A DNA stretch of 64,000 nucleotides from Escherichia phage E26: the sequence record MN655998.1; one strand, 5' to 3'. The notes under the pieces were generated by a model. It searched no databases. It was not told the DNA's origin and saw only the letters and a list, made by a program, of their open reading frames with translations. Below are positions 50,015 through 53,750 of the stretch, piece by piece. The stretch's first letter is position 1; every line of letters begins with the position of its first letter. A program made the translations under genes and the position numbers.

Positions 50015-50217
50015 TTACATTTAGGGCAATGCGGTTCTTTAATATAATACCCGTCTGTCTTTGGAACACTAACAGGAGCGGTTTTTATATTGTATTCAGT
50101 GAAACAACGAAAACAAGTTACGTTTTCTACAGACTGACGTTTCACCCAATCACCGGAATATAGATCATTTTTATTTGTCATATTCAACCACCACAATGTT
50201 AATGTCTGGAGTAGCAA
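49987..50217 (-). CDS. hypothetical zinc-ribbon protein
   Basis: CFRCF...CPKCKC. Confidence 0.4.
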   Translation of the reverse strand: MLLQTLTLWWLNMTNKNDLYSGDWVKRQSVENVTCFRCFTEYNIKTAPVSVPKTDGYYIKEPHCPKCKCRLYWSHL

Positions 50218-50626
50218 TATTAATGATCTCTTCTACACATTCCCACTCAAGGCCACCGATACCGCAACCGATTTTAGGAATATAGAAAGGCTGTATAGCA
50301 CCTTCAAAAACATCATTGATAGTCTCAAATCCTTTCAGGATAGCACCATATTCAGCATTTGGACCCGGTCGGAATTGGGTATAGAGATTCACCCCGCACC
50401 AGTTATAACCATTAACTTGATGCGTCCAGACACTAAACCCACCCAGCTTTTCTACCTTACCGCGAGAAGTTTGCTTGTCAATCTCTAACGCTTGCGGGAA
50501 CTCTTTCGCGATCTTTGCAGCAATACCAGCGCCCATAGTATGAAAACAATTACAACCATGAATTAAATGACCGTTTCCTTGTTTAAACAGGGCGATGAGA
50601 TCGTCCTTTACAGTATCAATAATCAT
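50171..50626 (-). CDS. putative macro-domain (ADP-ribose binding/processing) protein
   Basis: HGCNCFHTMGAGIAAKIA glycine-rich loop and about 150 aa size. Confidence 0.45.
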   Translation of the reverse strand: MIIDTVKDDLIALFKQGNGHLIHGCNCFHTMGAGIAAKIAKEFPQALEIDKQTSRGKVEKLGGFSVWTHQVNGYNWCGVNLYTQFRPGPNAEYGAILKGFETINDVFEGAIQPFYIPKIGCGIGGLEWECVEEIINIATPDINIVVVEYDK

Positions 50627-52478: not shown

Positions 52479-52507
52479 ATATTACTACCCCCGTTTTGTT
52501 GTGTCAA
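52479..52507 (-). promoter_or_regulatory. early promoter cassette (TTGACA-N17-TAATAT)
   Basis: Stem GGGGGTA/TACCCCC. Confidence 0.45.
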
Positions 52508-52965: not shown

Positions 52966-53664
52966 CTAACCACGGGTATAGTGTTCCAGAACAACTGTCA
53001 GATGGATATATTCTAATAGATCTTTCCAAAAGTCAACATCTGGTTCTTCCGGCATACCGTTTTTCTTTGCCTCTTCACTCGCGAGTTTAACACGCTCGTA
53101 GAGATCTTTCAATTCTTCCCGCACATTATCAAAGGTTCTTTCTCCTAACTTACACGCTAAAATAGAAGAACATCGCGCGAGCGGGAATTGTAGATCACCA
53201 GTCTGATAGATTTCAAGTAGCTGATAACCAACACGCAGAGCATGAGAAAGGTCTTTCCAGTTACTGAAATACTTTTCAGATTTGGCTACCTGCTTTTTGA
53301 GATAGCCAGACAAACCCCACATACCAACATGATAGAATTTATCACGATGTGTTCGGATGTATTCCCATTCTCTGGAGGATTCAATCAACATGTCACTAGG
53401 CGCGTGTACCATGTCAATAGCGCCAATATCGCCTTTACATGCCAGATTGATAAACCGTTTCAGACTAAACATATTAACGTCAATATCGTCTTTGGTGTTC
53501 TTGATACCTTGACCGCTAGTGCTTTGGTCATAGTGTTCTTTCATCGATCCTAAGATAATTTCTTTCGCAGTCGGAACAAAGATACCACGATAATCTTTAT
53601 CGGAGTTTTCAGTATCAAGGCCGTATAAGTGAGATCCGAAAACCATTTTAACCATTGTATGCAT
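52966..53664 (-). CDS. putative nucleotidyltransferase (Pol-beta superfamily fold)
   Basis: N-terminal FGSHLYGLDTENSDKDYRGIF (GS...D-x-D) motif. Confidence 0.5.
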   Translation of the reverse strand: MHTMVKMVFGSHLYGLDTENSDKDYRGIFVPTAKEIILGSMKEHYDQSTSGQGIKNTKDDIDVNMFSLKRFINLACKGDIGAIDMVHAPSDMLIESSREWEYIRTHRDKFYHVGMWGLSGYLKKQVAKSEKYFSNWKDLSHALRVGYQLLEIYQTGDLQFPLARCSSILACKLGERTFDNVREELKDLYERVKLASEEAKKNGMPEEPDVDFWKDLLEYIHLTVVLEHYTRG

Positions 53665-53710
53665 AATTAAACCCTCAGTTGATTAAGAGATTGCATCATA
53701 TCATCATAAA

Positions 53711-53737
53711 ACGAAAAAGCCAACCCTTTTTGGATTG
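53711..53737 (-). terminator. rho-independent terminator after grcA
   Basis: Imperfect stem AGCCAATCC/GGGTTGGCT + U-run. Confidence 0.4.
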
Positions 53738-53750
53738 GCTTGATGAAAAA

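Follow-up and report, generated by a model that had tools for sequence, protein, structure and literature searches.

The window analysed here is a 64,000-nucleotide stretch of Escherichia phage E26 DNA (MN655998.1). At 52966–53664 on its minus strand, the open reading frame (ORF) list gives an ATG-started frame of 232 amino acids (aa). The encoded protein is, with near certainty, a member of the RlaP family (PF10127) of the Pol-beta nucleotidyltransferase (NTase) superfamily. Its ortholog in phage RB49 is nrdC.11 (RB49p098), for which RefSeq gives the product name 'nucleotidyltransferase', and both the activity of the family and the membership of T4 NrdC.11 in it are published as a preprint. 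The finding therefore confirms an existing annotation and describes no new system. The additions beyond that annotation are modest: the insert-less architecture of the Krischvirus protein, the repeated independent loss of the insert among its relatives, and bacterial tandem pairs of a long NrdC.11-like and a canonical RlaP gene. The gene occurs once in the window, with a GC content of 0.406 against 0.403 for the window. The features of the coding sequence are the following.

52966–53664, minus strand: coding sequence of the RlaP-family NTase, ortholog of RB49 nrdC.11, with the stop codon at 52966–52968; 98% aa identity to Krischvirus proteins
53374–53664, minus strand: N-terminal Pol-beta-type NTase domain, approximately residues 1–97 (AlphaFold2 strands; the fold matches ANT(4'), HalB and LinB)
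53632–53637, minus strand: G10-S11 of the NTase signature (GGA TCT), read from the sequence and conserved across RlaP
53593–53601, minus strand: D22-K23-D24 (GAT AAA GAT), read from the sequence, with two putative metal-binding carboxylates; D22 and D24 invariant
53479–53481, minus strand: D62 (GAC), predicted third catalytic carboxylate, opening the strand 62–67 (alignments and AlphaFold2)
53260–53280, minus strand: short loop of residues 129–135 (SEKYFSN), the scar of the insert deletion (alignment against T4-type NrdC.11)
53233–53256, minus strand: K137, H141 and R144, conserved basic residues of the helical domain (alignments) and candidate contacts for NTP or RNA phosphates
52969–53373, minus strand: C-terminal helical domain, residues 98–232, with a long terminal helix at 210–230 (AlphaFold2)

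Family assignment and catalytic residues

The Pfam RlaP profile matched the protein at 53.4 bits, above its gathering threshold of 23 (E = 3.7e-14), with residues 7–190 aligning to positions 24–197 of the 249-position model. The precomputed database family of the 98%-identical protein cluster is also RlaP, and PHROG 388 'nucleotidyltransferase' matched with E = 1e-78. An NCBIfam search with the protein assigned no family. A Pol-beta signature at the N-terminus had been proposed in the first-pass annotation, and it is borne out by the letters and by both the RlaP and PHROG profiles. G10-S11 is followed by ten residues and then by D22-K23-D24, in agreement with the superfamily pattern hG[GS]-x(9-13)-Dh[DE]h; the peptide of residues 9–29 reads FGSHLYGLDTENSDKDYRGIF. 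The motif by itself is weak evidence, because 4 of the window's 128 six-frame stretches with 100 aa or more contain a relaxed form of it, and it is the profile evidence that decides the assignment.

The cross-subfamily alignment comprised the window protein, canonical RlaPs from bacterial RNA-repair operons (13–21% identity) and a Bacillales subgroup (26–29%). G10, S21, D22, D24, D62, K137 and R144 were invariant in it, and S11 and G15 nearly so; H141 was invariant inside the NrdC.11 lineage. D22, D24 and D62 were invariant in alignments A1, A2 and A5, so the catalytic carboxylates, the presence of which had been left to alignment by the first-pass annotation, are retained across the RlaP subfamilies. 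D62 lies in an 'IDV' triplet and opens the strand 62–67 of the model, where the third carboxylate is expected. As these residues are conserved across RlaP, the full set for two-metal nucleotidyl transfer is present, together with two basic residues of the helical domain.

Activity of characterised RlaP enzymes

Two Pseudomonas RlaPs, PfRlaP and PaRlaP, were assayed in a bioRxiv preprint of 30 December 2025 by Carruthers, Fatma and Huang (PMC12776372). Both attach one or two nucleoside monophosphates (NMPs), or deoxynucleoside monophosphates, to 3'-OH ends of RNA. DNA and protein are not substrates, and the purified enzymes gave no labelling of E. coli proteins or DNA. On a mimic of cleaved tRNA they favour the break end over the acceptor end, and their metal optimum is Mn2+ or Co2+. 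PfRlaP showed little specificity for nucleoside triphosphates (NTPs), and in total E. coli RNA it labelled rRNA-sized and full-length tRNA species. RlaP improves the aminoacylation of a repaired tRNA missing one anticodon-loop nucleotide, and its 3'-OH product fits 5'-phosphate ligases such as Rnl1 (PMC12776372).

The crystal structure of PfRlaP consists of an NTase domain, a helical domain and a terminal helix packed back on the NTase domain; the active site holds three conserved aspartates, with an acidic pocket opposite a basic cleft (PMC12776372). The two Pseudomonas enzymes and the window protein share PF10127, the domain order, the three conserved aspartates and a similar length. Canonical RlaPs differ from the window protein in sequence, at the low identities given above, and in setting, since the canonical genes lie inside RtcB-RtcA operons and the phage gene lies far from pseT and rnlA. 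T4 NrdC.11 is listed in the same preprint as an RlaP member of similarity cluster 5, the assayed enzymes forming cluster 1a (PMC12776372). The first-pass annotation held that the substrate could not be inferred from sequence. This was too pessimistic, as family membership points to RNA 3'-OH ends as the predicted substrate.

Predicted fold and the readings it suggests

The AlphaFold2 model of the 232-aa protein, built with a 35-sequence alignment, had a mean predicted local distance difference test score (pLDDT) of 91.9 and a predicted template modelling score of 0.88. The N-terminal domain is four-stranded alpha/beta (strands 2–9, 24–30, 44–48 and 62–67; helices 68–76 and 80–86). Residues 98–230 are all-helical and end in the long helix 210–230, in keeping with the helical C-terminal domain that had been expected from the letters. 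The best Foldseek matches were ANT(4')/KNTase and LinB (E ~1e-4, template modelling (TM) scores of 0.3–0.4, identity 10–13%), and HalB, AadA, MNT and terminal uridylyltransferases were also in the list. These matches agree with an alpha/beta NTase fold. All matches in the BFVD fold search were NTases of the protein's own family, from phages and giant viruses. Searches of PDB sequences with the single protein, with the NrdC.11-lineage profile and with the cross-subfamily RlaP profile found no meaningful relative.

The leading Foldseek matches bring up the possibility of an NTase that targets a small molecule or a protein and would inactivate a host toxin or metabolite in the way of ANT(4'), LinB or the MNT antitoxins that AMPylate HEPN toxins. 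ANT(4') and LinB have the same succession of NTase domain and helical domain, the C-terminal domain resembles HEPN-like bundles, MNT-HEPN complexes are in the fold lists, and one bacterial relative (L068) lies beside an AbiEii NTase toxin. However, the low TM-scores and identities are accompanied by no similarity at the sequence level, and ANT(4') and LinB are antibiotic-modifying enzymes without an RNA-repair context. Purified RlaPs left E. coli proteins unlabelled (PMC12776372), and no HEPN partner gene is adjacent, the flanking ORFs encoding GrcA-like or small proteins of unknown function. We therefore consider this possibility very improbable.

HalB of the Hailong system (PDB 9dbh/9dbj) is the nearest solved structure by fold. 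By analogy with it, the phage protein would be a polymerising NTase that makes an oligonucleotide, such as oligo-dA, de novo or on a protein primer, as a decoy or signal against host immunity. It ranked first partly by default, the PfRlaP structure not being among the structures compared. HalB shares 12–14% identity with the window protein without a profile-level match, and neither RlaP profile finds it in PDB sequences at E values up to 10. As a tetramer it synthesises poly-dA from a tyrosine primer, and its partner is the HalA channel; no adjacent HalA-like effector was identified here. The PADLOC defence models gave no meaningful hit, the characterised RlaPs require an RNA 3'-OH and halt after one or two additions, and all the informative genomic contexts are those of RNA repair. 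A HalB-like polymerase is very improbable. The reading without any RNA repair, in which the oligonucleotide would serve as a decoy or replacement signal, for example to hold a Hailong-type DNA-gated channel shut as phage nucleases degrade the host's own oligonucleotide, is likewise highly improbable. Interference with nucleotide second messengers and modification of host proteins, two of the roles listed in the first-pass annotation, thus found no support in the PADLOC search or in the protein-labelling data (PMC12776372).

Class II CCA-adding enzymes and poly(A) polymerases are, as is proposed here for the phage protein, template-independent Pol-beta-superfamily enzymes that extend RNA 3' ends. 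As fold matches they are weak (E above 0.1), and they differ in being much larger and in having other accessory domains.

The short form of NrdC.11

T4 NrdC.11 (NP_049709) has 336 aa and nearly all close relatives have 300–345 aa, against 232 aa for the window protein. In the alignment, ~100 residues are missing from the window protein between 'GYLKKQVAKS' and 'NWKDLSHALR', and the motifs that flank the insert, KYGxKGSR and YGERA, are also gone. At the insert point, 147 of the 153 nearest 50%-identity representatives (~96%) carry 80–130 residues and one carries 67; the segment is absent in five. By distance analysis these losses fall in at least three separate places, namely the window protein with P0002, P0151 alone, and P0140 with P0215. 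The insert was thus lost independently at least three times.

In a model of a T4-type protein (pLDDT 86.3) the insert folds as a separate subdomain, with two helices and five strands, at residues ~131–240. It emerges between two helices of the helical domain, and its flanks, KYGxKGSR and YGERA...IDWK, are best conserved. No Pfam domain or solved structure was matched by the T4-type insert in sequence searches. The short form is colinear with the 249-position PF10127 model, and the extra residues belong to the T4 form.

Descent of the short protein was read from both of its halves. They align to long NrdC.11-type proteins at 33–52% identity in BLAST; against T4 NrdC.11 the figures are 41% for the N-terminal and 52% for the C-terminal half. 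BLAST with the window protein hardly picks up canonical RlaPs (E from 1e-7 to above 1). Its nearest neighbours by distance are P0002 and then the long form P0121. That the short protein might itself be a canonical RlaP was rejected by BLAST and by the distance analysis. By these sequence comparisons, the window protein is placed as an NrdC.11-lineage enzyme that shed the ~100-aa insert and its flanking motifs. It shares with T4 NrdC.11 the lineage, the catalytic and helical-domain residues and the status of an accessory early-region gene of a T4-type phage. It differs in lacking the alpha/beta insert and in its locus. The window gene lies between vs.6/grcA and small paralogs near regB, whereas T4 nrdC.11 lies between nrdC.10 and mobD.

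P0002 (234 aa, 56% identity) is the only other close short form. Its contig, L086, is syntenic with the window and has the order endolysin, vs.8, Gly_radical, homing endonuclease, RlaP and then the same small paralogous ORFs. The short form of P0002 and this synteny indicate that both the deletion and the location beside grcA are old and maintained. On this divergent, Krischvirus-like contig the homing endonuclease gene (HNH/NUMOD4, L086:3951-4547) has been inserted at the very junction of grcA and the RlaP gene, where the window has just a terminator hairpin and an 86-nt spacer.

The window belongs to a Krischvirus, an RB49-like phage of the T4 type, and the gene is kept in all the matching Krischvirus records. 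The 6 kb around it is 96.6–97.3% identical to the 25 best-matching Krischvirus phages, for example RB49, Phi1 and GEC-3S. Matching nucleotide records number 58, each with at least 80% query coverage (56 at 95–99% identity and two at 90–95%); the protein is found at 95–99% identity in 58 phage records, and the short ORF is intact in 58/58 Krischvirus records. Remoter homologs extend to another 1,628 phage records, among them Tequatrovirus and phages of Klebsiella, Aeromonas, Acinetobacter, Bacillus and Mycobacterium; when 1.84 billion cluster representatives were searched exhaustively, 3,517 clusters proved to be related (E up to 1e-3). Compared with its RB49 ortholog, the window gene has 19 synonymous and 4 non-synonymous codon differences, which indicates purifying selection.

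The missing insert and its missing conserved flanks could also mean that the deletion destroyed the function and that the ORF persists by chance as a decaying or inactive remnant. This is extremely unlikely. The catalytic residues are all intact, and the fold is compact and confident over the deletion point (block pLDDT of 88–94 around residues 121–140). The codon differences and the intact frames in Krischvirus argue against decay, as do the maintenance of the short form at 56% identity in a syntenic relative, the repeated independent losses of the insert and a length that matches the canonical Pfam model colinearly.

Bacterial relatives and RNA-repair operons

The bacterial scan, with one genome per species, gave 147 loci with relatives. 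At the 37 of these that had long flanks, the inspection took in the two closest ORFs to either side. The commonest neighbour of a bacterial NrdC.11-like gene is RlaP itself (9/37 loci), the partner being a canonical RlaP of 255–277 aa that abuts the 3' end of the long gene. RtcB was found at three loci, Pnkp-ligase at two and Hen1 at two. Among the operons are RtcB-RtcA-long RlaP-canonical RlaP-Hen1-AAA (L022), Pnkp/ligase-long-canonical (L083) and RtcB-long-canonical (L051). The corresponding tandem pairs are at L022:7001-8743, L083:7001-8802 and L051:7001-8781, and six further bacterial loci have such a pair. From these operons it follows that the NrdC.11 lineage has the RNA-repair association of the family, in a minority of loci. 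RNA or tRNA repair was one of the roles listed in the first-pass annotation, and this part of its proposal stands, both by RlaP membership and by the occurrence of the lineage in RtcB/RtcA/Pnkp/Hen1 operons.

The tandem arrangement suggests that the long and the canonical RlaP are two non-redundant NTases, and possibly the pair acts as a heteromer. The activity of the NrdC.11 lineage might in that case be distinct from that of canonical RlaPs, which would explain why both genes are retained side by side in bacteria.

Proposed function of the phage enzyme

RNA repair was first discovered in T4-type phages, where Pnkp and Rnl1 reverse the damage done by PrrC. We propose that the window protein is a template-independent RNA 3'-terminal nucleotidyltransferase, which would restore nucleotides on damaged host tRNA or other RNA before the phage Pnkp and Rnl1 seal it (probability about 0.6). 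By analogy with the assayed enzymes, nucleotidyl transfer to RNA 3' ends by the phage protein is likely, and for a role in tRNA repair specifically we see even odds. The enzymatic activity of the NrdC.11 lineage, its RNA target in vivo and the link to a particular host nuclease are all inferred. A prediction quoted in later papers has RlaP replacing nucleotides lost from damaged RNA ends prior to ligation (PMC12776372, PMC7824862). In jumbo phages the distribution of RlaP parallels that of RNA ligases, and the same role was predicted there (PMC7824862). The name of the family itself refers to association with RNA ligases.

In the proposed mechanism, D22, D24 and D62 would bind two divalent metal ions, Mn2+ being preferred by the characterised enzymes. 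The acidic pocket of the NTase domain would hold the NTP, and the basic cleft opposite the helical domain, with K137, H141 and R144, would take up the broken RNA by its 3'-OH end. One or two NMPs would then be added to the RNA 3' end. In the infected cell, Pnkp (PseT) would heal the broken ends to 3'-OH and 5'-phosphate, and the NTase would act between Pnkp and Rnl1, the ligase of 5'-phosphate and 3'-OH ends. The genes of both partners, pseT and rnlA, are present in the near-identical RB49 genome. Between these two steps the NTase would replace the nucleotides that RloC-type host anticodon nucleases excise after cutting the tRNA, and ligation by Rnl1 would regenerate a usable tRNA, making this an accessory counter-defence function. 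The T4 segment from nrdC.11 to mobD.3 can be deleted in the laboratory (PMC9825161), and this, together with the hypervariable location of the gene, is compatible with such a role. If NrdC.11-type enzymes do restore RloC-excised nucleotides, they would supply the missing third step of the T4 counter-defence RNA-repair pathway; in the Krischvirus enzyme this step would have its most compact natural version, convenient for biochemistry and structure work.

Several observations weigh against this proposal. The activity is known solely for canonical Pseudomonas RlaPs, from which the NrdC.11 lineage is very divergent. The ~100-aa insert and its flanks are absent, therefore substrate selection may differ. 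The nearest solved structure by fold, HalB, makes DNA rather than extending RNA. Among the 37 bacterial loci, an RNA ligase is one of the two nearest genes per side at only ~5, and the tandem pairing at nine of them argues for a non-redundant and possibly different activity of the NrdC.11 lineage. In the phage, no RNA ligase or kinase gene borders the NTase gene: no Pnkp or Rnl1 homolog lies within the 64-kb window, and RB49 pseT and rnlA are at 128–130 kb, ~75 kb from nrdC.11.

The same chemistry could be directed at another target, such as intact tRNA 3' ends (for example damaged CCA), or rRNA or mRNA fragments; one possibility is the marking or rescue of products of phage or host RNases such as RegB. 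The low NTP specificity of PfRlaP and its labelling of rRNA-sized and full-length tRNA species fit a broader target range (PMC12776372). The regB gene is four genes away, in a block of RNA-related early genes of Krischvirus, and at one bacterial locus (L084) a CCA-adding/poly(A)-polymerase-like gene lies upstream of the relative. However, the proximity to regB is not kept in T4, the characterised enzymes prefer the break end of the cleaved-tRNA mimic to the acceptor end, and the operons of the lineage centre on ligases and end-healing enzymes. We regard another RNA target as rather unlikely, and restoration of damaged ends before sealing as the preferred reading.

Expression signals and surrounding phage genes

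The signals and ORFs around the gene are the following.

53672–53676, minus strand: Shine-Dalgarno sequence GAGGG, 7 nt 5' of the ATG, read from the sequence
53695–53723, minus strand: weak sigma-70-like promoter candidate from a consensus scan (TTGGCT, 17-nt spacer, TATGAT, with a TG extension)
53717–53741, minus strand: intrinsic-terminator-like hairpin and T-run between grcA (vs.6) and the NTase gene, found by scan and annotated as a terminator in phage GEC-3S
52750–52944, 52508–52768 and 52112–52507, minus strand: three tandem paralogous small ORFs of 64, 86 and 131 aa directly 3' of the NTase gene (phrog_6261, phrog_15978, unknown function)

The promoter is given as a candidate only, because sigma-70-like sites are no commoner in the region than in shuffled sequence (13 against 9.5 ± 3.0), and it has no counterpart in the annotation of GEC-3S. 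Downstream of the NTase gene, annotation places the next promoter at 52507–52479, past the second small ORF.

Upstream of the gene, the minus-strand ORF at 53751–54167 corresponds to RB49 vs.6 and matches the glycyl-radical domain PF01228 (E = 1.5e-16). Since the T4 counterpart bears the annotation GrcA, the position beside grcA that had been noted from the letters is correct. Small ORFs and regB complete the neighbourhood. The three small downstream ORFs are related by a common motif, ITPGK[ML]Y.FTP...GYI.DD.G...C[SA]HL...W.L[IV]. They gave no Pfam match, and their identification as homologs of T4 vs.3–vs.5 was rejected, the proteins being unrelated. They are probably co-transcribed with the NTase gene. 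The same family of small ORFs stands 3' of the RlaP gene on L086, and the linkage is thus conserved.

A role of the NTase in the maturation of phage tRNAs was considered and rejected, since no tRNA genes were found in the window or among the features of the RB49 ranges viewed. In the same RB49 ranges rnlB is not annotated. RB49 has a second small 'polynucleotide kinase' (RB49p229, 158 aa) near nrdB at 132333–132809 (L005:20634-21110), outside the window, which could be a further RNA end-healing component of the Krischvirus group.

Within the window, the minus-strand ORF at 60851–61321 is a homolog of T4 57B, with a match to phrog_755 'RNA ligase' (E = 1e-54) and the name 'RNA ligase' in the RB49 annotation. 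This label is probably misleading, because T4 57B is a 2H-phosphoesterase identical to the anti-CBASS (cyclic-oligonucleotide-based antiphage signalling system) nuclease Acb1. The minus-strand ORF at 50171–50626 is a Tk.4 homolog that the RB49 annotation calls 'phosphatase'; it carries a macro domain (PF01661, E = 1.3e-6). With vs, regB and the NTase gene nearby, it belongs to a block of RNA- and ADP-ribose-related early genes. Farther upstream, 5' of the endolysin gene, about ten very small minus-strand ORFs (54–88 aa) at 55269–57447 encode strongly hydrophobic, membrane-like peptides that are annotated as hypothetical in RB49.

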